A model generated the notes under the pieces. That model ran no database searches. It saw only the letters and a list, made by a program, of their open reading frames with translations, and was not told the DNA's origin. A DNA stretch of 64,000 nucleotides, taken from positions 320,001-384,000 of the forward strand of contig CBDCXV010000002.1 of NCBI GenBank assembly GCA_965223905.1, read 5' to 3'. How positions within the stretch are numbered: position 1 is the stretch's first letter; every line of letters starts with the position of its first letter. Position numbers and translations under genes: made by a program. This document shows, one piece after another, positions 33,934-50,063 of this stretch. The DNA is from Candidatus Latescibacterota bacterium (GTDB lineage: Bacteria; Latescibacterota; UBA2968; UBA8231).

Positions 33934-34839
33934 GTGACTATTTCAAAAGCGGTTCTGCCGGTTGCCGGCAGGGGTACCCGGCTGCTGCCGGCAACCAAAT
34001 CCCAACCGAAGGAGATGCTTCCCGTTGGCACCAAGCCGGTCGTGCAGCACGTGGTCGAGGAGCTGGTCGAGGAAGGAGTCGACAAGCTTCTGTTCGTCAC
34101 CGGCCGCAAAAAGCGGTCGATAGAAGACCATTTCGACGATGATCCCGAACTCGACAGTCTGCTTCAGGAAAAAGGGGAATCGGTCGCACAGCTCGATTAC
34201 GAAAAGGAAGGGGTGGAGTTCTTCTACGTCCGGCAGCGGCGGCCCCTGGGAAACGCCGATGCGATCCGACTTGGCGCCCGGTTTGTCGGCGAAGAGCCTT
34301 TCCTGGTCGGATTCGGAGATACGATCATCCGCTCTCCGCACAAACCGGGAGTTGTAGGGCGCATGATCGCTGCCCACCTGGGAAACGATGTGGCGGCAAC
34401 TATCGCCGTCTGGGAGGTGCCGGCGGAAGAGGTCGAGCGCTACGGCATTGTGAAGCCAAGCTTCGTAACCGGCGACAGCGACTGCTTCGAAATTTCCGAG
34501 ATCGTCGAAAAACCGAGCCCCGAACAGGCCCCCAGCCATCTCGCGGTTGCGGCCCGCTACATCTTCGACCGCCGCGTGTTCGCGGCGATAGAAAAAATCG
34601 AGACCGGCCATGGAGGGGAACTCTGGTTGACGGATGCGATCCAGATTCTGATTGACGAGGGGCACGGAGTTCAGTGCTTGCGCCTGCTTCCGGACGAGAG
34701 GCGGTACGACATCGGAAGTCCAAACACTTACTACCGAGCATTCGCTGATTTTGCACTCGCCGATCCCCACCACGGCCCGGTGCTGGCCGACTATCTCAGA
34801 ACCAGGCTTCTGCCAGGTGCTGAGGAGGTCGGATCGTGA
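33934..34839 (+). CDS. galU: UTP-glucose-1-phosphate uridylyltransferase
   Basis: KAVLPVAGRGTRLLPATKSQPKEMLPV, IEDHFD, VEKP, GELWLTDAI, RYDIG. Confidence 0.88.
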   Translation: MTISKAVLPVAGRGTRLLPATKSQPKEMLPVGTKPVVQHVVEELVEEGVDKLLFVTGRKKRSIEDHFDDDPELDSLLQEKGESVAQLDYEKEGVEFFYVRQRRPLGNADAIRLGARFVGEEPFLVGFGDTIIRSPHKPGVVGRMIAAHLGNDVAATIAVWEVPAEEVERYGIVKPSFVTGDSDCFEISEIVEKPSPEQAPSHLAVAARYIFDRRVFAAIEKIETGHGGELWLTDAIQILIDEGHGVQCLRLLPDERRYDIGSPNTYYRAFADFALADPHHGPVLADYLRTRLLPGAEEVGS

Positions 34840-36113
34840 TAGTCGCTCTCGACTACGGCCGCAAGGGAATCGAGGCGGAGGTGCCGGACGACGCAGAGAT
34901 CCTGTCGATGGCGGCTATGCCCGGCTTGGATCCCATCGAAGAGCGGCTCTACGAATCCCTGCGGGCTCCTTCCGGAACGGCGCCACTCATCGATCTGGCT
35001 CGCGGCCGGGAGGACGCATGCGTCGTCATCTCCGACATCACCCGGCCGGTTCCCAACTCCGTGATCCTTCCACCCATCCTATACACTCTGGAAAACGCCG
35101 GTATAGCGCGCGATGCCATTACCATCCTGATCGCCACCGGCCTGCACCGCCCCAACGAGGGGGAGGAACTGGTCGAGCTCGTCGGCTCCGAGATCGTGCA
35201 GAAATACCGCATCGAGAACCACCGGGCCAGGGATCGCCGCAGCCTGGCCTACCTCGGAGATACCTCGGCAGGGGCTCCGATCTGGGTGGACCGCCTCTAC
35301 CTCGAAGCCGATCTGAAGATCGCCACCTCGTTGATCGAACCCCACCTGATGGCCGGATACTCGGGTGGACGCAAGGCGATCTGTCCCGGGTTGATGGGTG
35401 TCGATACGGTGAAGGTGCTGCACGGACCTGAGCTGATGGGGCACCCCCGATCCGCCGAGGGGATCATCGAAGGCAACCCTTTTCACGAGCAGGCCTTGGA
35501 AGTAGCCCGGACTGTCGGAGTCGACCTCACTCTCAACGTGGCGATGAATGAAAAGCGGAAGATTACCGGCATTTTCTCCGGCGATCTGGAGAAGGCCCAC
35601 GCCGAGGGCGTGGCATTCGTCGAAGAGGCTGCCTTGGCTACCGTTGACGAGGCTGTCGACGTCGTGGTCACGACTAGCGCCGGGTTTCCCCTCGACCTGA
35701 CCTTCTACCAGGCGGTCAAGGGAATGACGGCGGTGCTGCCGATCCTCCGCGAGGGCGGCACCATCGTTATCGCCGCCAGCTGTGACGAAGGGCTGGGAAG
35801 CCGGGAGTTCAGCAAGCTGTTGTTGGGGACAACCGGGCTCGATGAGTTCGCCGGCAAATTGGAGTCGCGTGATTTCTTCGTCGAGGACCAGTGGCAGTTG
35901 CAGGAGTTGTGCAAGGTGCTCGCCAAGGCAAGGGTGAAGCTTTATTCTCAGAAGATCGCCCGCGATTTCGGAGCCTCCTTGCCGATGGTCGACGTAGTTC
36001 CCTCGGTAGAGGCGGGAATAGATGAAGCTCTCCGCGATTCCGCTAAAAAGGTCCGTGTAGCCGTCGTCCCGAAAGGGCCCTACGTGCTTCCGCGATTGAG
36101 ATCGAGTCGCTGA
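34836..36113 (+). CDS. larA: Nickel-pincer-dependent lactate racemase family protein
   Basis: SDITRPVP, ATGLHR, PHLMAGYSGGRKAICPG, GNPFH, FYQAVKG. Confidence 0.9.
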   Translation: MIVALDYGRKGIEAEVPDDAEILSMAAMPGLDPIEERLYESLRAPSGTAPLIDLARGREDACVVISDITRPVPNSVILPPILYTLENAGIARDAITILIATGLHRPNEGEELVELVGSEIVQKYRIENHRARDRRSLAYLGDTSAGAPIWVDRLYLEADLKIATSLIEPHLMAGYSGGRKAICPGLMGVDTVKVLHGPELMGHPRSAEGIIEGNPFHEQALEVARTVGVDLTLNVAMNEKRKITGIFSGDLEKAHAEGVAFVEEAALATVDEAVDVVVTTSAGFPLDLTFYQAVKGMTAVLPILREGGTIVIAASCDEGLGSREFSKLLLGTTGLDEFAGKLESRDFFVEDQWQLQELCKVLAKARVKLYSQKIARDFGASLPMVDVVPSVEAGIDEALRDSAKKVRVAVVPKGPYVLPRLRSSR

Positions 36114-36145
36114 GACGACGGAATGGCTTAGAGGAACAGATTCTC

Positions 36146-37228
36146 ATGGTAATTTCGAAGCTGAAACTACAGCTTCCCCGCACCCTTGCTGGAATGGCTT
36201 TGCTGATTGCCATGGGCACAGGTTGCTCTCAGCTCACATCGATTTGGGGCACGGTTTCTGAAGAGGTGGCAGCACAACCTGCGACCGACGAAACAGTGAC
36301 CCCCGCGCGGCCGGCAACCGCCGTGGAGACGGTGGAACTCGCCGACGCTGAGAAAGACAGCATAGATGCGCTCAAGAAGGTCCTCCTGATTCTGCCGTTC
36401 CGCGACGTTTCCAAATACAAGGGCCCTTGGGACATATACGGCCAGCTCGCCCGTGGATTGGCCGACACCCTCGGGCGTTACAAGGCCTATCGCATCATTC
36501 CGCCGGACTCCGGGTTCGTCCGTCTCGGGAAAAAAGAGCGCCTCGGCAAGATCGAGTCGGGCAGGGCCGTACATCTGGGACGACAGCTGGAGGCCGACGT
36601 CGTAGTCCTCGGTGAAATCGAAGACATCAGCATGAAGCGGTTTCGCGCTACGGTTCCCTTGGGTGGATACCGGAGCTACCAGGGCATTTCGGCGATAAAG
36701 ATCTTTTTCTACAATGCCATCGACGGTCAACCCACGGGTGAGTATCGGTGTGAAGGGCAGATCGACAGCAAGCGCACCGGCGTCGTCAACCCTGCCGCGC
36801 ATGTTCCCCTAGACAAGGAGTATTTTTTCCTGGGGGAAGCGGAATGGGGTTCTGCGGAGTTTCACAAGACCCTCGTAGGGCAGTCTGTCGGCGAGTGCCT
36901 GCACCAACTGGGTGTGGGAGTGGGAGCCACGGTTAGGCCTGCTCCCGAGCTGAGCGTATCAGAGCCGAAAATTATAGATATCGATGCCAGCCGCGCGTAT
37001 ATTAATGTCGGATCTGCGGATGGGGTCAGGAATGGGGACAAGTTCGGGGTCTGGGATCTTGGGCGCGAGCTTCGCGATCCGGAGACCGACACCGTTCTCG
37101 GCTACGCCGTATCCAGAAGAGTGGGGGTGATCCAGGTCGAACAGGTTCTCAACGAACACCTGTCACAGGTCAACATCCTCGAGGGCCAGGGAGAGATCGA
37201 GCCTGCGTTTTCGATTCGGGCCGAATGA
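36146..37228 (+). CDS. Lipoprotein with CsgG/TolB-N-like domain and FlgT-C-like domain
   Basis: Lipobox MGTGC; VLLILPF, AVHLGRQLEADVVVLGEI; AYINVGSADGVRNGDKFGVW...DPETDTVLG. Confidence 0.7.
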   Translation: MVISKLKLQLPRTLAGMALLIAMGTGCSQLTSIWGTVSEEVAAQPATDETVTPARPATAVETVELADAEKDSIDALKKVLLILPFRDVSKYKGPWDIYGQLARGLADTLGRYKAYRIIPPDSGFVRLGKKERLGKIESGRAVHLGRQLEADVVVLGEIEDISMKRFRATVPLGGYRSYQGISAIKIFFYNAIDGQPTGEYRCEGQIDSKRTGVVNPAAHVPLDKEYFFLGEAEWGSAEFHKTLVGQSVGECLHQLGVGVGATVRPAPELSVSEPKIIDIDASRAYINVGSADGVRNGDKFGVWDLGRELRDPETDTVLGYAVSRRVGVIQVEQVLNEHLSQVNILEGQGEIEPAFSIRAE

Positions 37229-37716
37229 GACGCATCTTTTTCCACAAGGCTGCAGTAATTGCGCTCGCCATGGGAATAGTCGCTCCTGGGGCTGGAGTCG
37301 GAAGTGTGGACGTCGCCGCCTACCAGTTGCTCTTCTTGTTTGATCCCGACTCAGAGGAACAGCTACGGAGGGCTCTGGTGCTGGAACGAGCGACCGCGGA
37401 GATCGACGGGATCGAGCTTCTGGGAATGGTGAATTCGCGTGATATAGGCTCTCCGGCTCTGGACCGGCTCGGCTTCCAGATATTGTCGGTCGGGGATTTC
37501 CTACAGCAAGATCAGGTAGCCGCGGAGGCCGCGGAAGACTGGTTCCGGTCCGGGGAGCCCGGCAGTCTCCTGCTGCTGAATCGGAACGGCGGCGGAACCA
37601 GAACTGTCGCGAGCGACGATTTCGAGGCGGCTATTCACCGACTCTCCGCAAGCCTGCCGATCCCTACAGAGGTAGACGTCACCACTTGGGGGAAGGTCAA
37701 GGACCTGTTCAACTAA
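37225..37716 (+). CDS. Exported protein, possible Cys-less thioredoxin-like fold, C-terminal TTWGKVK motif
   Basis: Signal peptide; ATGA overlap with the upstream stop; ends PTEVDVTTWGKVKDLFN. Confidence 0.65.
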   Translation: MRRIFFHKAAVIALAMGIVAPGAGVGSVDVAAYQLLFLFDPDSEEQLRRALVLERATAEIDGIELLGMVNSRDIGSPALDRLGFQILSVGDFLQQDQVAAEAAEDWFRSGEPGSLLLLNRNGGGTRTVASDDFEAAIHRLSASLPIPTEVDVTTWGKVKDLFN

Positions 37717-37729
37717 GTAGGTTCTAAAT

Positions 37730-38136
37730 TTGGATTCGCCTTTCATAGACAGGTCACCATCAGGCCGGATGGGTCAGACCTCCGTCGCCTTACTGATCAC
37801 AGGAAATCCGATTACTTTCCCGCTTGGTCTCCATCCGGAGACCGACTTACTTTCTGTTCGGAACGCTGTCGGAGGACAGGAACTGATGCTGGCCCGGCAA
37901 GACGGCAGCGTACGGGCCCGCATCACGGTGGCTGAGGAGAAGTACGAGCAGGAGCTGGCGTGGTCTCCGGATGGAAAGGGTCTTGCTTATTCGGAACATG
38001 AAGGGCGATTACGAGACCTACCTCGTCAACACACACATGGCTTTGACTTCCACGATGTGGAAACCCGGAAATGCCGTTCAACCTAACCGATAGCTCCGAC
38101 CGCGACGACAAATCGCCGTCTTGGAGACCCTTTTGA
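37730..38136 (+). pseudogene. Fragmented TolB/PD40-repeat protein
   Basis: Across different frames: RLTDHRKSDYFPAWSPSGDRL, QELAWSPDGKGLAYS, NLTDSSDRDDKSPSWRPF*. Confidence 0.65.
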
Positions 38137-38192
38137 AGTGGTCGAGCACAGATCTGCGTTGACAGTGCTACATCGCCTCGTCAAGTTTCTCA

Positions 38193-38909
38193 ATGTCCAC
38201 TAGATTCCATGCCAAAATGAAGGAGCAAGGTCCCGTGGCCACACCAAGACTGCTGCATTCGACAGCTTCACAGCTGCTGGTTTTTTGCCTGCTCGCATCC
38301 GGGTGCGCGACTACTTCGGGAGGGGGCGGTGGTCCCGCACCGATTCCGGAGGGGATGGGCAGACTCATCCTGGATGCAGGCGGCATTAATGAGTTGAATT
38401 TCTACGTTATCGATCAGGATACCGATGAAGAGGTGTATTCCGATACCCCCCGCCTTTCGGCGAGTTCTCCGGCCTATTACGAAATGGGCGCTCAGGAATT
38501 CCGGTTGATGTGCGATATTCCTCCGGGACTCTACACCGTCGTCGTCAATACTGACATCGACGACAATGTGGAGATTCGGAACGTCGAAGTCAGATTGGGC
38601 GAGGAGAGGTACGTCCCCGTTCAAGTCGGTCGTTTCTCGGTCAGGTTCACAGGGGGCGAGGAGTTGGGGCGGCAGATTCCCTTCCTCATCATGGACTACA
38701 ACATGCGCACCGTGCTAGGCAAGGGAATGACCTCTTCGGAGATTCGTTATTTCATAGTCCCGGCCGGCAGGTCGTACAAGGTGCGCATCGAAAATTCACC
38801 GAGCGGCCTCGACGAGTTCCGGCCCGTAGAGGTCACCTACGGAGGAATCACTCATATAACGATCGAATCCGACTCGCCGCAGCTCGAGGAGGAGGGCGGA
38901 ATCGAGTAG
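38193..38909 (+). CDS. Hypothetical lipoprotein, beta-rich
   Basis: Lipobox LLASGC followed by a Gly linker. AAGGAG before GTG 38235 suggests that is the true start. Confidence 0.7.
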   Translation: MSTRFHAKMKEQGPVATPRLLHSTASQLLVFCLLASGCATTSGGGGGPAPIPEGMGRLILDAGGINELNFYVIDQDTDEEVYSDTPRLSASSPAYYEMGAQEFRLMCDIPPGLYTVVVNTDIDDNVEIRNVEVRLGEERYVPVQVGRFSVRFTGGEELGRQIPFLIMDYNMRTVLGKGMTSSEIRYFIVPAGRSYKVRIENSPSGLDEFRPVEVTYGGITHITIESDSPQLEEEGGIE

Positions 38910-38969
38910 CGTGCACCCGGGTCTGACGATACTCCAGGAGAATCAGGGCCCCTTGTGAAAGGCACAACC

Positions 38970-39833
38970 ATGAAGACCCTTCACGCACTGATCACACTCA
39001 CGGGTGCAGCTGTATGTTCAGTCGTAGCGCAACAATCCGACATCGTCGCCACCGTCGTGGATCGAGCCGGCAACCGCCACGAAGTGTCGAAGCTTACCTA
39101 CCAGGGGGGCGACGACATAGAGATCTACGTAGGCAACCAGCGCCGCATCCTCAAAATGCAGGATGTGGATCGGCTGACAATGCAAGGCGACAAGAACGAC
39201 GAAGAGCAGCAGGTTGCTATTTCTCTGCGAACCGGTGAGGTGATCAACGCAACCATTTTTTCGGGCGGTAGCGGCAGTTCCCCCCATCAGGACAGCTTCG
39301 GTGGGGGCTCCGTGATGCAGCGTTTTGGAGGGGTCACCGAACTCGGACCCTTCCTGATCCTGATGTCGGAGGTTAGCGACGTGCTGTTCCTTCATCCCGA
39401 CGTCGCCGAGCCGCAAATCAAACTCAAGGCCACGGTCATCAACGAGGCGGGTGAGCGCTTCGAAGTCTCCAACCTCCGGTTTCGTGGAAAGCGCCGATTC
39501 GAGTATTTCCAAGGGTTGAAATTGCGCTCCAAGGAGATGGAAAGGATCAGCCGACTCGATTTCTCGAAGGCGGCTGCCGGCACTGAATCTCGCACCGTGA
39601 CGATAACTTTTCGCTCGGGACGCACTACCCAAGGAACGGTCGATGCCAGCACCGTGCGACTGGCGGGGGAAACCAACCGCATTTACGAGAAGCGGGTGGG
39701 CTCGGCTTTCACGGGAAGCTCCGGTACCGGTGATTTTGGAATCGGGTTAAATGACGTCAAGCTGATCCGCTTTCACGAAGAAAGCGAAGAGACCCAGCGC
39801 GAGGATGTTTCCGGGGCGGAGGAGGAAAAATAG
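38970..39833 (+). CDS. Exported hypothetical protein with a tandem domain duplication
   Basis: Signal peptide; IVATVVDRAGNRHEVSKLTY aligns with LKATVINEAGERFEVSNLRF. Confidence 0.7.
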   Translation: MKTLHALITLTGAAVCSVVAQQSDIVATVVDRAGNRHEVSKLTYQGGDDIEIYVGNQRRILKMQDVDRLTMQGDKNDEEQQVAISLRTGEVINATIFSGGSGSSPHQDSFGGGSVMQRFGGVTELGPFLILMSEVSDVLFLHPDVAEPQIKLKATVINEAGERFEVSNLRFRGKRRFEYFQGLKLRSKEMERISRLDFSKAAAGTESRTVTITFRSGRTTQGTVDASTVRLAGETNRIYEKRVGSAFTGSSGTGDFGIGLNDVKLIRFHEESEETQREDVSGAEEEK

Positions 39834-39868
39834 TCTCCAAATTGCTGCCGGAGTGGGGTAGGCCGGCG

Positions 39869-40756
39869 ATGAGGTCTTGCGTCTTTCTTACGGTCGCGAT
39901 CTTCGCAGTTCTAGCAATCGCTCACCAACCTCCCGGAGTCAGTATTCGGGCGTTCCAATTTTCCGATCATCACAAACCTGTGATAGATGGCGACTTGGAG
40001 GACTGGGAAATAGTCGATTCCGACTATTGCGTGTCAACAGATCAGCTTACAGATCTCGTCAACGGAGCTGTGCCGGACCTATCCGATTTCCGCACAACAC
40101 TCTGTGTAGGCTGGAATGATGCGTCAAATCAATTGTATGTGAGTGCAGTAGTCGCCGATGACGTCCATCAAATTGACCGTCCCGAGGGGACTCCTCCCGC
40201 CTTGATATTCCAGGACGACGATCTGGAGATATTCGTGGACGCCAATCATTCAGGCGGTCAGTTTGCCGATTTTTCCGACTTGAGTGAGGACGAGCAGCTG
40301 CGCCTGAACGGCACTGAGGCCAACCACTTCATTCTTTCTGGCCCACCACCTCCAAACGGAGATTTTTTCGTCAATTTCTCTGCTGCTGGGTGGTATTCAG
40401 AGCCGGATGGGGAATTCACCAAGGCTGCAGTGGTGGTGGCGATGCCCGGTGTCGTGGCCTATGAAATGGCGCTGACCCCTTTTGACAGAATCGACGTGGG
40501 AGCTTCTTTCCTCAGTGTGGCACACGACTTACGCGAAGGAGAAGTTCTCGGGTTCAACGCGGAGTTCAACGATTTCGACACCCACTCGGAACTCTACGAA
40601 GCCAAGTGGTCTCTGAGCGGGGGGCACAATGCTTTCCGGCTGTCCGAGAGGTTCAGCGATCTCAAGTTGGCAGGTCTTTCCGAGCCGGTCGAAGGCACCG
40701 CAATTTTGGAAAAGTCCTGGGGTCAAATTAAAAACTTCCATCCGACCATGAAATGA
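39869..40756 (+). CDS. Exported CBM9/DOMON-like sugar-binding protein, C-terminal SWGQIK motif
   Basis: PVIDGDLEDW, GWNDASNQLYV, DDLEIFVD, YEMAL, LGFNAEFND; ends GTAILEKSWGQIKNFHPTMK. Confidence 0.72.
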   Translation: MRSCVFLTVAIFAVLAIAHQPPGVSIRAFQFSDHHKPVIDGDLEDWEIVDSDYCVSTDQLTDLVNGAVPDLSDFRTTLCVGWNDASNQLYVSAVVADDVHQIDRPEGTPPALIFQDDDLEIFVDANHSGGQFADFSDLSEDEQLRLNGTEANHFILSGPPPPNGDFFVNFSAAGWYSEPDGEFTKAAVVVAMPGVVAYEMALTPFDRIDVGASFLSVAHDLREGEVLGFNAEFNDFDTHSELYEAKWSLSGGHNAFRLSERFSDLKLAGLSEPVEGTAILEKSWGQIKNFHPTMK

Positions 40757-40881
40757 ACTATCTTACGGCGGGGTTGCATCGGCTGAGCGTTCTTTCGTAT
40801 TTGCTATCTCGAACGACCCGGGCGCCGTGGTTTTCGGCGCGAGGCAAGCCAACAGGATCTCAACAAGGAGCCCGTGCGATC

Positions 40882-41661
40882 ATGTTCGCGAAACCGGATT
40901 TGGGAATGACTACACCGCGCAAAATTCCCTCTCTTCTCTTCTCAGCAATTGCTCTAGTGTCGGTGATTTTGGCGAGTTGCGGATACTACCACTACGCCAC
41001 ACCCTTACGCCCCGCCGAGGGTCAGCAGAGTGCGATGAGCGTCGCTGACGATGGCAGCATCACCTTCACGCAGGATCGCCTCGAGGTCAGGCTTCGTCCT
41101 ATGACCGACGAGGAGCTCAATCGGCAGTTTGCATCGCATTCCAATTCAGGACCGAAATCCACCAATCCCTACACCTACGGAAACACCAAATTCTGGGAAG
41201 GCGAACAGGAACGCACCCGATTTACGGTGTTTCGCCTAAGCGTCAAGAATTACGCCTATCCGAAGGTGAAGATTGATCCCGCCCGAATTCAACTCGTCGC
41301 ATCGAACAACCGCGAGTACTGGAGCTTAGGGAAACAGCAGATGGACACGTACTACCGCGCCTATGCCATCGGGTATCGGGGCAACGAGTACAACCGCTAC
41401 CAAGAGCGGATGGATTTGCTGAATCGCACCATGTTTAAGAACGAAGGGATCTTCAGCGGACAGGAGAATGAGGGGTTCGTAATCTTTCCTGCACTTCACC
41501 CCGATGTCCGCGAGATAAACGTCATCGTCCACGATTGCGTGCTAAGGTTCGACTACCGAAATGAACCGGTCGAAGCGGTTGATATCAACTACGGTTTCGA
41601 GCGAGACATCGGGCGCAGGTATGGCGATGCCGAACCCGTAATCGAGACTGCGAGCAAGTAG
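40882..41661 (+). CDS. Hypothetical lipoprotein, possible Ig-like fold
   Basis: Lipobox ILASC; FTVFRLSVKN...GQENEGFVIFP. Start uncertain (40882 or 40906). Confidence 0.68.
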   Translation: MFAKPDLGMTTPRKIPSLLFSAIALVSVILASCGYYHYATPLRPAEGQQSAMSVADDGSITFTQDRLEVRLRPMTDEELNRQFASHSNSGPKSTNPYTYGNTKFWEGEQERTRFTVFRLSVKNYAYPKVKIDPARIQLVASNNREYWSLGKQQMDTYYRAYAIGYRGNEYNRYQERMDLLNRTMFKNEGIFSGQENEGFVIFPALHPDVREINVIVHDCVLRFDYRNEPVEAVDINYGFERDIGRRYGDAEPVIETASK

Positions 41662-41690
41662 CAAGAAATACCACAAGGAGGATCGAGCTC

Positions 41691-42641
41691 ATGAAGGCAG
41701 GGCGTCTATTCGCAATCGCCAGCGCCATAACGGTCTTGGCGACCACAGCGCATGCATCAATCACAGACATTCAGAATTTAGCCGCGGGCGCGCGCGCGGC
41801 ATCGCTGGGCAACGCTTTTGTGGCGGTGGCCGACAACGGTGACGCGGTGTTTGCCAACCCGGCGGGTCTGAGCCAGATCGAGAGCCGCCAGTTAGCCTAC
41901 ACCAACATGTCGATGATGTTAGGAGGCATCGACGGGGACGATCTGGGCCGGCACCTTACCAGCTTCGTACAGCCGTTGGGGGAGAAGCTCGCTCTAGGGC
42001 TGGGTTATGCGCGCAACGGCTCGGAGTTGTTTAATGAGAACGGGGCGTTTGCTTCCATGTCCTACCGGTTGAACCGCACCCTGTCGCTGGGCCTAACGGC
42101 AAAGTACCTGTTCTGGAGCGTCGGGGAGATTCCAGATGATAACGGTGTTGCAGACCCGTTGTCGAATAAAAGCCACGGTGCTCCGGGGGTCGATGTGGGT
42201 CTGCTGTGGAAGTCGCCATTGCGCGGGGCGCATTTGGGTCTGCTGTTGAAGGATCTCAATCAACCTAACTCGGCATGCGGAACAAAATGCTCCAAGGATG
42301 CCGTGCTGGAGCCTGATGCCGGCAAGTTGCCGATGGATGTGCACATCGGTATTGCAGCCCCAGTTGCGGAGACCTCGATGGTGTCGGTTCAGTGGGTGAT
42401 GCGCGATCTCGGTGGCGAAACCGAGAGGAGTCTTGTGATTGGTGGCGAGACCCGTCTGGTCGAAGGGCTGATGTTGCGTGCTGGAGGAAGCAGGATCCTC
42501 GAAGAGGATGTTAGCGGCGATCTCAATGCCGGTCTGGGGTACCGCTGGAACAAAATGCTGTTTGACTACGGCTACCACATCCCACTTGATCTGACCGAAA
42601 CCAACGGATCTCATCGCTTCACTCTCAATTATAGATTGTAA
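41691..42641 (+). CDS. PorV/PorQ-family (FadL-like) outer-membrane beta-barrel
   Basis: AAGARAASLGNAFVAVADNGDAVFANPAGL; GVDVGLL, LMLRAG, FDYGY, SHRFTLNYRL; AAGGAGG RBS. Confidence 0.82.
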   Translation: MKAGRLFAIASAITVLATTAHASITDIQNLAAGARAASLGNAFVAVADNGDAVFANPAGLSQIESRQLAYTNMSMMLGGIDGDDLGRHLTSFVQPLGEKLALGLGYARNGSELFNENGAFASMSYRLNRTLSLGLTAKYLFWSVGEIPDDNGVADPLSNKSHGAPGVDVGLLWKSPLRGAHLGLLLKDLNQPNSACGTKCSKDAVLEPDAGKLPMDVHIGIAAPVAETSMVSVQWVMRDLGGETERSLVIGGETRLVEGLMLRAGGSRILEEDVSGDLNAGLGYRWNKMLFDYGYHIPLDLTETNGSHRFTLNYRL

Positions 42642-42684
42642 TCCATCCTTCTGTGCATAGAAAAACTGGCAAGGAGTTCTGGTC

Positions 42685-45600
42685 ATGACGGTTTGGTTGG
42701 GACTAATCGTCCTGGGCCTTGGGGTGGGGACTAGCCTCTTCCTCCCCGTTCCGCAGAGCCTGAAGACCAAATTCGACGCGGGCCAATCACTTTATGCCCT
42801 CGGCGAGTACGAAGGCGCCATCATCGAGTACAGCAAGGTTGTCAAGTTCAACAGTCGGGCAGTTCGAACCGACAGTGTCCTAGTAGGTTTCGGCGATGAG
42901 TTGGAGTTGCCGATCATGGCCGCGGCTTGGTATCAGCTTGGCAACGCTCACATGCGCAGTGGAGCCCACGAAAAGGCAGTTGATGCCTTCCGTCAAGTGA
43001 CGGAACAGACCGGCGTTCCCGAAGACTTTAGACAACTCGTCCAATTCCGCGTTGCCGAGACTCGCTTCATGCAAAAGGAGTTTGGTAAGGCGGCAGCCGA
43101 GTACAAGCGATATACGGAGATGTTTCCCGACTCGAAACTGGCCGGAGAGTCGCTGTTCTACGCCGGTTGGAGCGAGTTCAACCTGGAGTCATATGATCAG
43201 GCCATAACCACTCTGGCTAGCATGCTCGAGAGGTATCCCGAAGATCGCTACGCCCCGGACTCCCAGTTCCGCATCGCCTCGTCTTACTACGAGAAAGCCG
43301 AATACCAGCGAGCGGTGGACGAGGCTCAGGCAGTGCTCGATCGTTATCCGGAAAGTCCTGTCATCGCCTCAGCGACCTATTTGAAAGCCCAGGCCTTCGA
43401 CGAGATGGATCGGCCGGACGAAGCTATCAAGGCCTATCGCGAGGTTCGCGATCTGTACGACCGCATGTACGAATTGCTCCGAGGGTCTTTCCGGGAAGGC
43501 AAGAATGTTGATTTTGAAAATTACCGGCAGTTGTTCGAAACGTCATCGTTGCGCGTCGCTGAAATTTACCGAAAACAAGGCCAATTCGAAGAAGCTTACC
43601 AAGAGTTGATATCTGCTCAGGAAACGGCCGAGGAGCGCTTCTACAAAGCGAAAGTTCAGATGCGACTTGGCGACAATTATATGGAATGGGAGCGCTTCGA
43701 CGATGCGTGGAACACCTATAACCAGGTGATCACACTATATGGGGATACCCCTTATCCACCCAATGCCCAGTATCAGAAGGGAGAAGCGCGTTACTTCGCT
43801 GGCCGATACGACGAGGCTCGCAGCGAATACCAGCTCGTAACGCAAAACTATCCGGACAGCGAAACCTCGTTGCGAGCCCAAGCTCTTTACAGTGCAGGTT
43901 GGTCGTCGGAAAAGTTGGGGGATTTCGAAGAGGCTCAGAGCCTTTACACTGAGGTGGTCGAGAGTTTTCCGAGGTCTGACCAAGCACCCCTTTGTCTGTT
44001 GCGGATTGGCCGGGTCAACACCGAGCAACAGCGCTTCGAGGAAGCCATCGAAGCTTACGAGATGATTGCAGAAAACTACGGTGAGACTAAACACGCAGCA
44101 GACGGAAATTACGGTCTGGGAATTCTCTACAAGCAAACGGGAAGACTCGAGGAAGCTATCGCGGCCTTTGCGCGCGTGGGGCGCAAAGCGCGCGAAGTGT
44201 ACGTTGCATCCCTGATTGAGGCGGCAAATATACACATCGGGGAAGGCAGATCTGAGAAGGGGAAAGAGCTCCTTAAAGAGTTGTTGGCAGGAGTTAGCGG
44301 AGACCGCGATCTCGAAGCTACGGCACATTATCAGATCGCCCAGTTGGACCTGAATAACAAGAACTATTTTGACGCAATCACACGATACACAAAAGTAATT
44401 GAGGAATACTCCGAAGCAGGGGTGGTTCGCGATGCACACTATGGCCGTGGTCTTGCCTACCACTACGCCAATCGATACAGCAGCGCGATCGCTGACTACG
44501 GGTGGCTTCTTGAGTCCGACCTTCCGAAGCCTATGCTTTTAAAGGTCGAATTCTCAATGGCGCTGTCGTTGTCCGCTCAAGGCAAGGACGACGAGGCCAC
44601 TGAACTATTAAACAAGGTTATCGATTCAGGAGACGAGACCCTCGCGCGTAATGCCCAGCTACAGCTAATCTCGATGGCAGAGAAGCAGGATCCTCAAGAC
44701 GCCATACGCACCTATGAAAGCATGCTCGCGAAGCTCGAATCCGAGGAAGACAAGGTGCGTGTGCTAATTCGTTTGGCAAGCGCCTACTTCAGACTCGAAC
44801 AGTACGATCGCAGCATCCAGGCATCGCAGCAACTCATTGATCTTGCTGTCGACGTTGAAAGCATTTCCAATGCGTTGTTCGTTCAGGCAAATAGCTTTTT
44901 CCGGTCAGGAAATCTGGAACAGGCGATCGCGACATACCAGACCATCATCGATAACTATCCTCAAATTGGCTGGGCGAAGAATGCTCAATTTCAGATCGGG
45001 GTCGCCTACAATTCCCTGTCTGGAGGCGGCAACGTGCAATACCTACCGTTCATGGTGGAAGCTTTCCGGAAATATCACCAAACGTACCCGGATGACGAAA
45101 AGGCCGTCTATGCTCATTACTACGATGCTTGGGCGAGCTACCGCATGGGCAAATGGCGTGAAGCAGGCACCGCATTCGATCAGTTGGCCAAGAATTATCC
45201 GTCGTCCCACTTTGCTCCTGAAGCGCTGTTCCGATCGGGAGAAGCGATTTTCAACCTAGCCCAAGGCCTGCTTCGGGAAGAAAAGAACCAGATCTTTATC
45301 GAAGCTATGGGAAAATACGACCGCGTTTTGAGTAGATATTCGAAATCCGAGTACGTGGATGATTCCTTGTATAACAAAGCATGGGCATTGATTCATCTGG
45401 GACGAAAGGAAGAGGCCCTGCCAATATTTGAGCGGATCGTAGACAATCACCCCGACGGCTATTACGGTCCAAAAAGTCAATTCACGCTTGGGGATTTCTA
45501 TTACAGTGAGAAGGTCTACGATAAGGCGACCGAAAATTACCAAAAGTTCCTTGAGATATATCCTGATGAGCGTCTCAAGAAAGCCGAAGACAAGAAGCTG

Positions 45601-45930
45601 CGTCGGAAGGCAACCGTCCTTCTCGGTCACCTCTCGGAAATCGACGCCTACAACGTTTACGCCGAAGGCGAGAAGTTGTTCGACAAGGAACAGTACGTCG
45701 AGGCGATCGAGATTTTTGAGCAGGTTCTGGAAAAGTATCCGGACAGCGATCAGGCGGTAAACGCCGCCGTCAACATTGGGGCCGCCTACATGGCACAGGA
45801 AGAGTATCGGAAAGCAGCCGACGTATTCAAACAAGTAGTCGAAAAGTACAGCGAAGCAGCGAGGTTTTCTCCGCAAATAGATTTTTCCAAGCAGCAGCTG
45901 CAGGCTCTGGAAGAAGCTCGTGTCATATAA
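42685..45930 (+). CDS. Large membrane-anchored tetratricopeptide repeat protein (1081 aa)
   Basis: N-terminal hydrophobic helix; many BamD/CpoB-style repeats (YPDS...A.Y..G); AAGGAG RBS. Confidence 0.88.
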   Translation: MTVWLGLIVLGLGVGTSLFLPVPQSLKTKFDAGQSLYALGEYEGAIIEYSKVVKFNSRAVRTDSVLVGFGDELELPIMAAAWYQLGNAHMRSGAHEKAVDAFRQVTEQTGVPEDFRQLVQFRVAETRFMQKEFGKAAAEYKRYTEMFPDSKLAGESLFYAGWSEFNLESYDQAITTLASMLERYPEDRYAPDSQFRIASSYYEKAEYQRAVDEAQAVLDRYPESPVIASATYLKAQAFDEMDRPDEAIKAYREVRDLYDRMYELLRGSFREGKNVDFENYRQLFETSSLRVAEIYRKQGQFEEAYQELISAQETAEERFYKAKVQMRLGDNYMEWERFDDAWNTYNQVITLYGDTPYPPNAQYQKGEARYFAGRYDEARSEYQLVTQNYPDSETSLRAQALYSAGWSSEKLGDFEEAQSLYTEVVESFPRSDQAPLCLLRIGRVNTEQQRFEEAIEAYEMIAENYGETKHAADGNYGLGILYKQTGRLEEAIAAFARVGRKAREVYVASLIEAANIHIGEGRSEKGKELLKELLAGVSGDRDLEATAHYQIAQLDLNNKNYFDAITRYTKVIEEYSEAGVVRDAHYGRGLAYHYANRYSSAIADYGWLLESDLPKPMLLKVEFSMALSLSAQGKDDEATELLNKVIDSGDETLARNAQLQLISMAEKQDPQDAIRTYESMLAKLESEEDKVRVLIRLASAYFRLEQYDRSIQASQQLIDLAVDVESISNALFVQANSFFRSGNLEQAIATYQTIIDNYPQIGWAKNAQFQIGVAYNSLSGGGNVQYLPFMVEAFRKYHQTYPDDEKAVYAHYYDAWASYRMGKWREAGTAFDQLAKNYPSSHFAPEALFRSGEAIFNLAQGLLREEKNQIFIEAMGKYDRVLSRYSKSEYVDDSLYNKAWALIHLGRKEEALPIFERIVDNHPDGYYGPKSQFTLGDFYYSEKVYDKATENYQKFLEIYPDERLKKAEDKKLRRKATVLLGHLSEIDAYNVYAEGEKLFDKEQYVEAIEIFEQVLEKYPDSDQAVNAAVNIGAAYMAQEEYRKAADVFKQVVEKYSEAARFSPQIDFSKQQLQALEEARVI

Positions 45931-45970
45931 GCTTTCAGTGCTGTAGCTCTAACAGGGAGGATTGTAGCAC

Positions 45971-46624
45971 ATGTTAGATTTCTTTCGTGACGGGGGACCG
46001 TTCATGTATCCGCTGGCTCTTTGGTCGATTATGGCCGTGGGTTTTTTCCTCGAGCGTGTGTGGACATATTCGCGGATGCGTAGCGAAGAAGAGTTGGCTG
46101 AAGCAACCAACGACATAAACACCCGTGTTGACTCGGGGACCACTTTCGAGCAGTTGCGGGAGTACTGTGCAGAGGTGGGCAAGCTGGAAGGTGAAGTATT
46201 CTTGGGGGGTATTGATCGCTTTGAGCACCTTTCGAAAGAACAGCGCACGATGGAAGAAATGCGCGCAGAAATGAACGGCACCGTCGAACGCGCAGCCCTT
46301 GGCTATCTGGAGCGCTACTTGTCGGTTATCCAGTTCGTCGCCAACTCGGTAGTGTTGTTGGGACTGCTCGGAACGGTGAACGGAATGATCCGAGCCTTCG
46401 AGGGTATCGCGGAGAAGGGTCTCGGTGAGCCGACCATCGTTGCGGCTGGTATCTCTGAAGCGCTGATAACCACCGTTACCGGCCTTGTAATCGCTGTGCC
46501 CTCGATTGCGATTTATACCTATTTCAGCACACGTGCCGAGAGCAGGTACGTCCAATTCGAAGCCTACGGACACGGCTTCGTCGACGCTTTGCTTCGTCGT
46601 TGGCAATCCTCGCAAGCTGCCTGA
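45971..46624 (+). CDS. exbB: MotA/TolQ/ExbB proton channel family protein
   Basis: GGPFMYPL...ER; LLGLLGTVNGMIRAF; GISEALITTVTGLVIAVP. Confidence 0.92.
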   Translation: MLDFFRDGGPFMYPLALWSIMAVGFFLERVWTYSRMRSEEELAEATNDINTRVDSGTTFEQLREYCAEVGKLEGEVFLGGIDRFEHLSKEQRTMEEMRAEMNGTVERAALGYLERYLSVIQFVANSVVLLGLLGTVNGMIRAFEGIAEKGLGEPTIVAAGISEALITTVTGLVIAVPSIAIYTYFSTRAESRYVQFEAYGHGFVDALLRRWQSSQAA

Positions 46625-46676
46625 GCGGCATTCTTGCAATTTTAATCAGGATTTAGGTAGGGAGGGACAAGGAGAG

Positions 46677-47096
46677 ATGGCAGCCGTCCAAAAACGTGGT
46701 GGCAATGACGAGAAACCCGACCTCACACCAATGATTGATGTGGTGTTCCAGCTTCTCATCTTCTTCATGGTAACGGCGGTGTTCGCTATCACCCCCGGTC
46801 TGGACATCAAGTTGCCAGAGGCAGAGGAGTCACAGGCCCCCGAGAAGGAAAACCTTTTTATTGTGGTCGATCAGGATGGCAATATGAAGCTCAACCATAA
46901 GAGCGTTACGTTTGCCAATCTCAAAGAGGAACTACAGGCCAAGAGGACGCTATTGGATAACACGACCTTGATAATCATTCAGGGTGACGAACGCGCTACA
47001 CACGGCCAGATCGTCCAGATCATGGACATTGCCAGACAGGTAGGCATTGTCGATCAAGTGATCGCAACGGAGCCGCAAAGAGGACGTGGGAAATAG
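46677..47096 (+). CDS. exbD: ExbD/TolR family protein
   Basis: DLTPMIDVVFQLLIFFMV with the conserved Asp; IQGDERATHGQIVQIMD; AAGGAG RBS. Confidence 0.93.
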   Translation: MAAVQKRGGNDEKPDLTPMIDVVFQLLIFFMVTAVFAITPGLDIKLPEAEESQAPEKENLFIVVDQDGNMKLNHKSVTFANLKEELQAKRTLLDNTTLIIIQGDERATHGQIVQIMDIARQVGIVDQVIATEPQRGRGK

Positions 47097-47201
47097 TCAT
47101 TCCAACCGCAGTAGATGCGTGAGTTTTTACAAAGTGAGTTCTCGACAGACCGGACTGGGAATGACGCACTCTTCGCGCCAAACACCTGAGGACTGAATAC
47201 C

Positions 47202-48533
47202 TTGGACGAACGAAAGAAGCAACTATACGCGATATTCGGGGTTGCAGTACTGATTCACCTGCTACTCATCATCTCTAAATGGTTCGCGTACGCTGTAGGC
47301 GCAGCTGCTTTTGCCGTGCTCCTGATGGCGCTATGGAAAGCTACGACTGGACGCCGACTGGGCCTAAACGCCGCCCTTATTCTGTCAGTGATTGTCCACG
47401 CCGGAGCTTGGGGTGTTGCCTACTACATGCAGCTTACAGTGGTTGAAGAAGAAGAAAAGCTGATTTACTTCCAGGCTCCCCCTCCCATTCTGCAGAAAAA
47501 CTTCGATCTCGCCAAACAGCCAGAGATATCGGAAGTACAGATGGAGATGCTGCTTTCCCAGGCAATGCAAGCCCCTGAAGATATTTCGGCAATCGTCGAT
47601 GTCAGTTCGGTGGGAAGCGACCTCCTTGGAGCGGTGTTGCCCGGAACCCAAGTGCTAGGGGCTTTCAGCGGGGCAAAAGCTGAAGAACTCGCCTTCGACC
47701 AAGTCGAGATGATCGAGTTGACACAGACCGCGGCACCCGTGCAGGAAGCTATGAGCTTGAAGCAGGAATTGCTGAACGTCGGCGACTTGGATTTCGGTCG
47801 TTTCCAGGCGATCCTCATCCAGGATCCGGACAACAAGCGCAATATCAAAGGCTTTTTCAACATGACGGTGGTCGACTACGATCTTGCCGACAAAAGCATT
47901 GATCGCTTTCCCACCGCTGTAGAGGAGTTGATGCGGTATATTCGCGACCACTCGCGTGTGAACGCACGTATCGAGGGTACGACACTGCGGCTCAGTGATC
48001 CCGGCGTGATGAAGGCGCCATTTATCTATCTGACTGGCAACAGCGCAGTATTCCAGTTCACCAACACAGAGAAGGAGAACCTCGGCGAGTACCTGAAGAA
48101 CGGTGGGTTTCTGTTCGCGGAAGAAATTCGGCAGGCAGATCCGGAAACCGGTCTCGACCAAAAGAATGCCGGCGTTCAGGGGACTCTTTTTGATCGTCAG
48201 TTCAAGGCGCTGATGAAGGATCCGGACGTCCTCGGAAGCGATGGCAGCAAATGGCAGAAAATCCCCAAGGACCACGATCTATACTACAGCTTCTTCGATT
48301 TCGAAGACGGACCACCGATGGGTGGGGCTCCGGGTGGCAATGTGTTCGACCTTGAAATGCTTGAGCTTCGGGGTCGTGTCGCGGTGGTTTTCAGCGATCT
48401 CAATATCAGCTGGTACTGGGGTGATCCGAACGCCGACGCGAGGGAACGTGGTTTGCAGTTCGGGGTCAACCTGATTGTTTATGCCCTCACCCAACCTGGT
48501 GGCATTGCAAATGTGACTCAATACACTCAGTAG
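47202..48533 (+). CDS. Membrane-anchored DUF4159 domain protein with a TonB/TolA-like SxxxH helix
   Basis: N-terminal hydrophobic segments including LSVIVH; C-terminal PFIYLTG...ENLGEYLKNGGFLF...DHDLYYSFF...GRVAVVFS...GVNLIVYALT. Confidence 0.8.
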   Translation: MDERKKQLYAIFGVAVLIHLLLIISKWFAYAVGAAAFAVLLMALWKATTGRRLGLNAALILSVIVHAGAWGVAYYMQLTVVEEEEKLIYFQAPPPILQKNFDLAKQPEISEVQMEMLLSQAMQAPEDISAIVDVSSVGSDLLGAVLPGTQVLGAFSGAKAEELAFDQVEMIELTQTAAPVQEAMSLKQELLNVGDLDFGRFQAILIQDPDNKRNIKGFFNMTVVDYDLADKSIDRFPTAVEELMRYIRDHSRVNARIEGTTLRLSDPGVMKAPFIYLTGNSAVFQFTNTEKENLGEYLKNGGFLFAEEIRQADPETGLDQKNAGVQGTLFDRQFKALMKDPDVLGSDGSKWQKIPKDHDLYYSFFDFEDGPPMGGAPGGNVFDLEMLELRGRVAVVFSDLNISWYWGDPNADARERGLQFGVNLIVYALTQPGGIANVTQYTQ

Positions 48534-48554
48534 GTTAACTAAAAGGTTAACTAA
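48532..48554. repeat. Tandem 11-bp direct repeat AGGTTAACTAA x2
   Basis: Copies at 48532-48542 and 48544-48554, each containing GTTAAC. Confidence 0.75.
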
Positions 48555-48563
48555 GCTGAAACG

Positions 48564-48611
48564 AGGAAAGCCCGGCGGTTCTTTACGGATCGTCGGGCTT
48601 TCTTCTTTTTT
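48564..48611 (+). terminator. Rho-independent terminator closing the envelope cluster
   Basis: GAAAGCCCGGCG...CGTCGGGCTTTC stem followed by TTCTTTTTT. Confidence 0.85.
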
Positions 48612-49072
48612 GTGTATCTGGTTGAGAGGCTTGAGAGCCTCTATCTCTCTCCCAAATGTCGGGTTGAGCGGCTTGAAGTTCCGGTTTTTTCGGTTTGCCT
48701 TCCGGGCACCCAGTCTCCACTACCATAATGTCCTCGGGTTTTTTCCATGTCACGGATTGTGATTCAGGCACCACGGCACGTAGCGGGACAAGCAACGCCA
48801 CGAAGGGGGCAGAATTACGATTTTGGGTGCCGTCCAATGTCACAGCACCCTGTCGGAGGCGATACACTGCCTGCCGACCCAGTGACATTCATTTTCCGAA
48901 GGAAAAGGGGCGTGGGGTTGTGTTACCCGCTTCGGCCCGGAGAACCTCATCGCGCATGCTTGCATCGCAATTTTTTCGGAACACTCCCCTCGACAATGCA
49001 GAATCCGTCCATATAGAGCTGGAGAAGATGATCGGAGGTTATGAGCGGAATACTTGGAGCCTGGGTTCGAGA

Positions 49073-49924
49073 TCAAACGCGGGTGTATTTGAAGACCAGG
49101 TTTTCGACACCCACTTCGCCGACATAAAGATCGCCATGACGGTCCACCCACAAAGAATGAGCGCCGTGAGGTCGATCGTCTGGTCCCCCGGTCACGACAA
49201 ACTGCGACATAAGCCGCCCCCCCGGACTGAAGATGCTCACGCCGCCTCCTTCAGCCACGAACACGGCCCCATCGGGATCGATGAAAAGCCCACAAGGATA
49301 CAGGCGACCTGGCCACTGCTCCAGAAAGCCGCCGTCGAAGTCGAAGAACTGGAGGCGGTTGTTCGGTTCGCGGTCGGCAACGGCCACTCTCTCGTCGGGG
49401 GTGATGAAGATATTATGCGGCAACGTAAATTGGCCCGGCTGAGACCCCTTTCCACCCCAGGAGTGTTTCCAGGTGCCGTCAGATGAAAAGCAGTGTACGA
49501 ACTGCTGGCCGTAGCCATCGCTGACGAAAATGTCCTCGGAGGGAGCTTGGACCGCCCTGGTTGGCATGTTGAACGGCTCGCCCGGTGCGCCGATATTGCC
49601 AGGGTTTCCCAGGGTCTGAAGCACCTTGCCCTCGGTTGTGCAGATACGCACGCTGTGATCGCGGCAATCCGTGATGAAGAGGCGATCGTCGGGCGAGATC
49701 CAGATTTCGTGCGGCAAGGGAAACAGGTCCTCACCCCAGGAGGTCAAGAAGCGACCCTCGCGATCGAACACCACAATGGCGGGTTCTGGTTCCCGGTCGA
49801 CGACGTAGACGCGGTCCGCTGAATCAACCGCAATTCCCGAATTTACACCCATGGCACGCCCGGCTTGCCCACGCCCCCAGCCTTCGACCCGTTCGTATTG
49901 GTATGGTGCCGATCCTACAATCAC
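49073..49924 (-). CDS. NHL-repeat protein (peptidyl-alpha-hydroxyglycine lyase-like propeller)
   Basis: FDREGRFLTSWG, PHEIWI, FNMPT, IFVSDGYG, SWGGKGSQPGQFTLPH, VADRE. Confidence 0.88.
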   Translation of the reverse strand: MIVGSAPYQYERVEGWGRGQAGRAMGVNSGIAVDSADRVYVVDREPEPAIVVFDREGRFLTSWGEDLFPLPHEIWISPDDRLFITDCRDHSVRICTTEGKVLQTLGNPGNIGAPGEPFNMPTRAVQAPSEDIFVSDGYGQQFVHCFSSDGTWKHSWGGKGSQPGQFTLPHNIFITPDERVAVADREPNNRLQFFDFDGGFLEQWPGRLYPCGLFIDPDGAVFVAEGGGVSIFSPGGRLMSQFVVTGGPDDRPHGAHSLWVDRHGDLYVGEVGVENLVFKYTRV

Positions 49925-50063
49925 GAGATTCTCCGTCTGTTGAGGTTAGGGCACCAAGCATTGATCGAGTTTTTGCGCCTGTCAAGGCAGGTAGAAAAAC
50001 AACGCGTTGACAGTAGATGTTCATTCTCGAAGTTAGGATCCGTTATTGTGGAGGAAGCATGGA

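Follow-up and report, generated by a model that had tools for sequence, protein, structure and literature searches.

What an ExbB/ExbD-type motor drives when the protein beside it carries a DUF4159 head rather than a TonB one is the question raised by a gene cluster in the genome of a Candidatus Latescibacterota bacterium. The cluster lies in a 64,000-nucleotide stretch of DNA (the window; GenBank assembly GCA_965223905.1, contig CBDCXV010000002.1, positions 320,001 to 384,000), where twelve co-directional open reading frames (ORFs; g01 to g12) follow each other on the plus strand from 36146 to 48533, separated by short gaps or overlapping slightly; eleven are solid and one (g03) is doubtful. 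Ton and Tol are the textbook routes that carry inner-membrane energy to the outer membrane (OM). An earlier note on this DNA had described about twelve co-directional genes ending at a terminator, nearly all with export signals, and had proposed a machine, related to type IX secretion (T9SS) or novel, in which the motor exports or anchors proteins with a short C-terminal tag. The gene run, the hairpin that closes it and the export signals are confirmed, the last as lipoboxes, signal peptides and membrane anchors read by eye in the translations; the secretion machine and its link to the tag are not borne out. The cluster is probably one of six copies of a conserved envelope module, in which an ExbBD motor is combined with a DUF4159-headed, TonB-like arm and a scaffold of tetratricopeptide repeats (TPR), as judged from sequence comparison.

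The motor pair is encoded by g10 (45971-46624, plus strand), an ExbB/TolQ-type subunit (PF01618, 86.8 bits), and g11 (ORF 46506-47096, plus strand), an ExbD/TolR-type subunit (PF02472, 100.5 bits) of 139 residues when read from the likely ATG start at 46677, with its membrane-helix Asp within LTPMIDVVF. Neither subunit reaches an equivalog model: g10 scores 82.4 bits with TolQ (TIGR02796, cut-off 221) and 50.7 bits with ExbB (TIGR02797, cut-off 206), and g11 scores 67.6 bits with TolR (TIGR02801, cut-off 127.3), the ExbD equivalog cut-off being unreached as well. In a tree of 34 ExbB sequences, the module-linked ExbBs form supported groups that are joined by an "orphan" ExbB at C10:2171754, and the TonB-linked ExbB of the genome and a third ExbB fall outside on very long branches. 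The earlier note had reckoned with motor genes that group with ordinary Ton or Tol systems; the module ExbBs group with each other and apart from the TonB-linked ExbB, a grouping that is indicative and not proof.

The protein next to the motor, g12 (47202-48533, plus strand), has 443 residues and matches the DUF4159 model PF13709 over residues 223-429 (96.1 bits, cut-off 25.9). Its N-terminus holds two extra helices and then a third one with the motif S62xxxH66 (47355-47426), followed by a conserved post-helix motif at about residues 87-107, a disordered linker (residues 123-191) and the DUF4159 head (47868-48488). In an alignment of 36 relatives, at least 90% retain H66, which looks essential, and the pattern [SAGTC]xxxH occurs in a hydrophobic helix of 51 of the 75 distant representatives with at least 360 residues. 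Many distant representatives carry the basic motif PLTTxFVKRxPRLTKPLELKK directly after the helix, for which g12 has FQAPPPILQKNFDLAK. This "motor box" is taken from the conserved motif alone, the structural model predicting no strand there. The helix is not uniform within the genome: among its eight DUF4159 paralogs of the type with a transmembrane helix (TMH), it reads SxxxH in three and AxxxH in four, and one has no His. Neither TonB_C nor TonB_2 matches g12 or any other cluster protein at E ≤ 0.1. This anatomy of helix His, post-helix motif, linker and head is of the TonB/TolA type and upholds the SxxxH-DUF4159 transducer that had been proposed; the most fitting reading of g12 is that of a non-TonB force transducer serving the motor beside it.

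The AlphaFold model of g12 (mean pLDDT 73.1) is confident for the head, at about residues 199-440. The top structural match of the head is the solved DUF4159 protein PDB 4i66 (Foldseek E 4.3e-12; Z 21.0, rmsd 2.2 over 188 residues), and the next neighbours are glutamine-amidotransferase (GATase1), ThuA and IFT52-type folds with Z of 7-9. A GGF at residues 301-303, within the head, is near-invariant in the family. Because no Cys occurs among the conserved columns of the 36-sequence alignment, the head is read as non-catalytic, the site of the amidotransferase nucleophile serving as background to this reading. A complex prediction that paired the head (195-443) with the lipoprotein g07 (77-302) gave a score of 0.00 against a mark of 0.32, a result that speaks neither for nor against binding.

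Upstream of the motor, g09 (42685-45930, plus strand) encodes a TPR protein of 1081 residues with an N-terminal membrane anchor (TPR_6 274.9 bits, YfiO/BamD-like 121 bits and others). There are six such giant TPR genes in the genome, and a TMH-DUF4159 gene lies within about 0.7 kb of five of them; for the sixth, in module C11, it is about 12 kb off and on the opposite strand. The preceding gene, g08 (41691-42641, plus strand), encodes a putative OM barrel of 316 residues that is a distant relative of the PorV/PorQ family. The earlier assignment to this family stands in length and falls short in score: residues 27-315 align with positions 6-325 of the 326 in model NF033709, at 70.5 bits against a cut-off of 90. 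Other models score lower, with 29.9 bits for PorP/SprF (TIGR03519), 20.0 bits for Pfam PorP_SprF (cut-off 22.3) and 16.9 bits for the PorV equivalog NF033710 (cut-off 250). The genome encodes two g08 paralogs, which belong to modules C2b and C11.

The synteny search that the earlier note had suggested finds the block conserved within the genus, the family and the genome, and across public species genomes. Both same-genus genomes carry all 12.4 kb in collinear form (81-91% nucleotide identity), apart from the g03 stretch. All three same-family genomes tried match at least the ExbB, ExbD and g12 stretch at 66-73%, and in two of the three the match also spans g08 through the TPR gene; in the same-family genome G090, most of the TPR gene is matched, together with weaker pieces of g01, g04, g06, g07 and g08 in order nearby. 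Within this genome, four modules hold their own ExbB and ExbD genes. A scan of species genomes returned 478 g12 relatives in 572 candidate stretches, and the best 80 loci were scored with hidden Markov models built from the paralogs of this genome. Among the 45 of these loci with at least 8 kb upstream, a TPR giant lies within 9 kb in 31 and the full set of TPR, ExbB and ExbD in 24; a protein of an uncharacterised family of about 950 residues, described below, is found there in 20 and a PorV-like barrel in 8. Downstream, a g07-like gene occurs within 4 kb in 29 of the 67 loci with room for it.

The order of the block is recognisable at considerable distance. The orthologous loci L017-L028 (50-73% identity) contain a barrel or a 950-residue protein, then TPR, ExbB, ExbD and DUF4159. 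Metagenome-assembled genomes (MAGs) labelled Zixibacteria (L073) and Neomarinimicrobiota (L062, L074) hold barrel, 950-residue protein, TPR, ExbB, ExbD, DUF4159 and g07. MAGs labelled Cytophagia (L032) and Zhuqueibacterota (L037) have a like order, to which a further DUF4159 gene is added and, behind g07, a g01-like gene, a position that g01-like genes also take in L034 and L083; no barrel was seen in the Zhuqueibacterota-labelled locus L037. Of 101 genomes sampled from the phylum, 100 have DUF4159 itself, with 1-27 matches each. The named members among ten distant relatives are just Ignavibacteriaceae and Latescibacterota. A small DUF4159 protein (C1:1005897-1006469, in a frame of about 220-260 residues) scores about 200-250 bits with the Pfam model; among the 100 sampled genomes with the family, most have it as their best match, and it represents a distinct, near-universal member.

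The sister modules contain two further components. The first is the lipoprotein encoded directly after DUF4159, which resembles g07 and often ends in a TonB_C-like domain. Within this genome TonB_C scores 26.6 and 18.5 bits on two g07-like paralogs (L015:6435-7670(-) and L013:6763-8037(-)), against a cut-off of 24.6, and in other genomes 9 of 10 long g07-like proteins, among the g07-like genes of L031-L094, end in a TonB_C- or TonB_2-like domain, with two reaching the Pfam cut-off. The only matches to the TonB_C profile in the whole genome are C1:236778 and the g07-like gene of module C1. The presence of TonB_C on a g07-like neighbour suggests that arm and TonB_C are split over two proteins. 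Profile searches of the cluster bear out the absences that had been remarked on, with no match to TonB_C, Plug, GldL or GldM (the last two searched without a positive control); for TonB_C, this holds for the present copy and not for the g07-like lipoproteins of its sisters.

The second component is the family of about 950 residues, of which sister modules hold one to three members and the genome about 35 paralogs (L010:9059-14778, L011:13093-16077, L014:1863-10786, L015:12106-17705 and about 25 other places). Its genes often adjoin TPR giants. The family consensus, read by eye, has Asp-rich repeats that look Ca-binding; no Pfam match lies above cut-off, and a profile search of the PDB gives no match (best E 0.17). 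The nearest named cluster in the ESM Atlas is the TonB-dependent-receptor-like DUF6029 (0.88), which is a lead only. These are probably OM proteins. The sister modules encode, besides these, F5/8C proteins whose C-terminal domains are of the CHU_C/FlgD_ig type, CBM9-like proteins and FG-GAP/ASPIC proteins, as well as beta-helix, oligogalacturonate-lyase-like and DUF6785/DUF6784 membrane proteins. Taken with the large number of copies per genome, this carbohydrate-related content speaks for substrate-specific work at the OM and against a single housekeeping role. Polytopic proteins with DUF6785 and DUF6784 end modules C10 and C11 (L013:4664-6631(-), L011:2408-4357(+)), and a similar gene adjoins the canonical ExbBD-TonB operon (C1:231556-233481); these may be inner-membrane permeases.

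The scheme favoured here starts from the gene content, the kept gene order, the conserved His and the motif after the helix, together with the head's fold. An ExbB/TolQ-ExbD/TolR proton motor would sit in the inner membrane with g12 beside it as a TonB/TolA-like arm whose linker would span the periplasm, and proton flow through the motor would pull or turn g12. The g12 head would engage an OM partner, here the lipoproteins g07 and g01 and, via them, the PorV/PorQ-like barrel; in sister modules the OM proteins of about 950 residues would be the partner of the head. The membrane-anchored TPR giant of about 1,100 residues would act as a periplasmic scaffold. As to the output, a Ton-like gated OM transaction for the capture or uptake of carbohydrate-derived substrates is tentatively put ahead of T9SS-type export, at somewhat under an even chance. 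With a third type of head, the motor platform would drive more OM processes than import and division. The DUF4159 head travels with a TPR giant, with new OM proteins and, in sister modules, with a TonB_C split off onto a lipoprotein, and the module is a concrete candidate for powering the cell surface of uncultured, polysaccharide-associated bacteria.

Several observations weigh against this scheme. The present copy has neither 950-residue proteins nor TonB_C, so that its Ton-like reading is borrowed from the sister modules. When compared with the 27 Plug-domain receptors of the genome, the 950-residue family gives an hhalign probability of 0.1%. Nine of the 45 loci with 8 kb upstream have no TPR, ExbB or 950-residue family there, and DUF4159 also exists as a small, soluble protein and in yet other settings. 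The ExbB tree is midpoint-rooted; just two of its sequences are non-module ones, and reference Ton or Tol proteins are absent from it. The scheme infers the contact between motor and g12, every contact at the OM and the output. On the supporting side, the cluster is covered, with depth in 27-28 of 30 bins, by contigs from four metatranscriptome-library runs that belong to one study and bear the label sponge metagenome, and single contigs span ExbB-ExbD and ExbD-g12; such contigs show no strand, level or single transcript and may include DNA.

When compared with the Ton system, the module shares the motor families PF01618 and PF02472 and the SxxxH helix of g12, and TonB_C is encoded next door in sister modules. 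In contrast to Ton, g12 has no TonB_C, which where present sits on a separate lipoprotein, the neighbour of the motor is a giant TPR protein, and none of the 27 Plug matches of the genome falls in the cluster, the nearest being at 20073-20399. This nearest match belongs to a canonical Plug-domain receptor in a frame of 984 residues, 16 kb upstream of the cluster, and seems unrelated to it.

The closest described relatives of the module are transducers in which a TMH with an SHLS motif is linked to a non-TonB head, encoded downstream of TPR-tolQ-tolR-tolR (Williams-Jones et al., 2025; PMC12204202). They are reported from PVC bacteria, Proteobacteria, Bacteroidetes and Rhodothermaeota, and not from Latescibacterota; the head is called vWA-like and of unknown function, and a role in gliding is suggested in section 8 of that paper (PMC12204202). 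The main text uses no "DUF" term and describes no barrel, g07 lipoprotein or 950-residue family (PMC12204202). Like these transducers, g12 has a helix with a His motif, a disordered linker with a motor-box-like motif and a globular non-TonB head, and the order of g09-g10-g11-g12 is likewise TPR, tolQ-like, tolR-like and transducer. Unlike them, the cluster has one ExbD in place of two tolR genes, and the head is DUF4159 with GATase1-like neighbours instead of being labelled vWA. Among the 50 matches listed in either fold search, none is a vWA entry; both vWA and GATase1-like folds are three-layer alpha/beta sandwiches. The cluster is a variant of the proposed class, set apart from it by the main-text description and possibly of the same family (PMC12204202). 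In the literature searched, "DUF4159" turned up just in the Pfam database paper.

Among the alternatives, the one that survives best, and is nonetheless unlikely, is a Tol-Pal-like housekeeping system for OM tethering or envelope integrity, with g12 as TolA and the TPR giant as CpoB. TPR_6, in which the giant is rich, is the repeat type of CpoB/YbgF. The best models for g10 and g11 are TolQ and TolR, at the sub-cut-off scores given above, and no Tol-Pal operon was noticed at the two other ExbB loci inspected. Unlike a Tol-Pal system, however, the twelve cluster proteins include no match to the TolA C-domain, TolB or Pal, and no Pal-like or TolB-like gene is present (the search for TolB and Pal covered the cluster and not the whole genome). 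The six modules of this genome, the spread of 1-27 DUF4159 matches over the genomes of the phylum and the variable, often carbohydrate-related accessories also fit poorly with a housekeeping function.

The T9SS-related machine of the earlier note comes next and is also judged unlikely: an ExbBD motor, TPR scaffold and PorV-like barrel would export or anchor proteins with a WGxIK tag. In its favour, g08 matches the PorV/PorQ family over its full length, g02 and g06 bear the tag, and in modules C2b and C11 the gene directly before a PorV-like gene encodes an F5/8C protein whose C-terminal domain is of the CHU_C/FlgD_ig type, so that T9SS-type C-terminal-domain proteins lie beside such barrels in sister modules. 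Components of a T9SS are encoded elsewhere in the genome, outside the cluster: SprA (C10:1146986-1153183, 607.6 bits summed over the frame) and PorU (C2:227875-231813, 617 bits), with a PorV-like gene directly after the latter (pair C2:227875-233027). At least 49 further ORFs of this genome match the C-terminal-domain part of the PorU model. GldL and GldM have no match in the genome at E ≤ 1 (TIGR03513, TIGR03517, PF12081), in searches run without a positive control, and the best match to GldK reaches 92.5 bits against a cut-off of 350. The GldM model PF12081 also finds no match in five other module-bearing genomes, nor in 31 genomes of the phylum of the Cytophagia-labelled MAG G001. Since SprA, PorU, PorV and many proteins with T9SS C-terminal domains are present and GldK, GldL and GldM undetected, ExbBD/DUF4159-transducer/TPR modules might be what energises type-IX-style secretion or surface attachment in Latescibacterota and neighbouring phyla; the clients of the motor would then be the PorV/PorQ-like barrels and, next to them, proteins with a C-terminal domain or the tag. 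The absence of GldL and GldM is unvalidated by a control, which keeps this idea alive just as a long shot. In contrast to a T9SS, the motor here is of the ExbBD and not the GldLM type, the barrel is sub-threshold and the short tag differs from a T9SS C-terminal domain; the T9SS link leans on this barrel below cut-off, SprA and the canonical PorU-PorV pair lying elsewhere in the genome. No literature was found that links type IX secretion to Latescibacteria or Latescibacter.

The tag speaks against the T9SS reading as well. The motif WG.[IVLM]K occurs 110 times in ORFs of at least 100 residues, and in 86 such ORFs it falls within the last 25 residues, which argues for a real C-terminal signal; its context is TAVE..SWGRIKA at the very end. 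CBM9-like ORFs make up 38 of the 86, from a family with 89 matches in the genome, and no NCBIfam model matches the tag on g02 or g06. Tagged ORFs are scattered over the genome. When their positions are compared with 200 random trials, 4 of the 86 lie within 10 kb of an ExbB gene (random mean 1.5, maximum 6) and 6 within 10 kb of DUF4159 (mean 2.4, maximum 10), neither a clear enrichment; 8 lie as close to g07-like genes (mean 2.0, maximum 9), inside the range of the trials, and 19 to 950-residue genes (mean 5.6, maximum 14), a modest enrichment. The 80 related loci contain just 9 tagged ORFs and one chance match in ExbB, and none in loci of other phyla. WGRIK-coding sites, counted as a single spelling of the tag in 101 genomes of the phylum against a reversed-pattern control that gives 0-3, number 45, 64 and 74 in three genomes of this genus and are at background (0-2) in 10 of the 18 genomes with at least 10 DUF4159 matches. 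By these counts, the tag appears lineage-restricted and fails to track the module, so that neither its role as a cargo signal nor the expected co-occurrence with the block is sustained.

Less probable again is a machine for gliding or surface adhesion of the Myxococcus Agl-Glt or Flavobacterium SprB/SprF kind, with the motor moving a surface protein that the PorV/PorP-like barrel retains. Agl-Glt, an envelope-spanning machine, is likewise marked by a TolQR-type motor, TPR giants, TonB-like proteins and OM barrels, and modules C2b and C11 contain the pairs of C-terminal-domain protein and barrel mentioned above. A gliding role is also what section 8 of the transducer study suggests (PMC12204202). 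Set against this, the heads and barrels here come from other families than those of Agl-Glt, no homology to Glt or Gld proteins emerged (no comparison was aimed at Glt), GldL, GldM and GldK go undetected (in searches without a positive control), and this copy has no adhesin-like giant. Least probable of all is that an ordinary extra ExbBD pair, with its true TonB elsewhere, merely adjoins unrelated envelope genes: the genome has one canonical ExbB-ExbD-ExbD-TonB operon as well as 27 Plug-domain receptors, and the single TonB could in principle serve several motors, but the gene order is kept across phyla, the helix His and post-helix motif are kept in g12 relatives, and the module ExbBs stand apart from the TonB-linked one.

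The genes upstream of the barrel are more variable in what can be said of them. The first, g01 (36146-37228, plus strand), encodes a 360-residue lipoprotein (lipobox MGTGC) with a CsgG/LpoB/TolB_N-like N-terminal part and a weak FlgT_C-like C-terminal part (Pfam FlgT_C 19.8 bits, under the cut-off of 27); its ESM Atlas features lie at 0.94-0.96 to CsgG-family clusters, a lead only. The start of g02 (37225-37716, plus strand) overlaps the stop of g01 by 4 nt. Its product, a secreted protein of 163 residues that belongs to no family, ends in TTWGKVKDLFN, with the WGKVK tag at 37687-37701. The doubtful ORF g03 (37730-38086, plus strand; 118 residues) has a TTG start, a GC3 of 0.56 and a PD40-like fragment with weak WD40-type matches; it is probably not a gene. 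The stretch is missing from the same-genus genome G129 (query 1578-1901 unmatched). It resembles the remnant of a propeller repeat protein of the PD40/TolB type (LAWSPDGKGLAYSEHEG).

The lipoprotein g04 (38193-38909, plus strand; 238 residues, lipobox LLASGC) belongs to no family, with no match in Pfam or NCBIfam, and in L023 and L026 genes resembling it are found upstream of the barrel. The secreted protein g05 (38955-39833, plus strand; 292 residues, with a signal peptide) has no family either, and g05-like genes are present in L023, L026 and L028. CBM9_1 matches the secreted 304-residue protein g06 (39842-40756, plus strand) at 34.5 bits (cut-off 23.4); the protein ends SWGQIKNFHPTMK, with its WGQIK tag at 40718-40732. 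The lipoprotein g07 (ORF 40753-41661, plus strand; lipobox ILASC) has a conserved Ig-like beta-sandwich domain and no named family, and is the short form without TonB_C of a protein with 10 family matches in the genome. Its likely start is at 40882. Two of the four RNA-library runs show a strain variant with 8 nt inserted at 40761, near the 5′ end of the ORF, which argues that the first 43 codons are non-coding. The AF2 model of g07 has a pLDDT of 79.9, and its best structural neighbours are YcdA/YjhA-type sandwiches with Z of 8.0-8.7; the predicted fold is a generic Ig-like sandwich that is uninformative on function.

The cluster is closed by an intrinsic terminator-like hairpin (48563-48605, plus strand) with a stem of 19 pairs, 10 of them G-C, and a T run; the stem is followed by TTTTTTGTGT. 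Terminator-like sites are no more frequent in the region than in shuffled sequence (19 vs. 13.9, sd 4.1), and the one at the cluster end has by far the longest stem. No contig covers 48552-49035, just past the hairpin, in any of the four RNA-library runs, a gap that, as it comes from the contigs of a single study, is not used as evidence of termination. In composition the cluster differs from its surroundings: G+C is 0.51-0.58 per 2-kb bin (36000-50000) vs. 0.61-0.69 in the rest of the window, and its GC3 of 0.56-0.69 is lower than the 0.7-0.88 of the sister modules. This may reflect later acquisition or a different codon regime. Upstream, a LarA-like gene (34836-36113; Lar_N 194.9 bits) stops 33 nt before g01 and seems unrelated to the cluster. 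Between ExbB and ExbD, all four RNA-library runs share another strain variant, a 1-nt deletion at 46653 or 46654.

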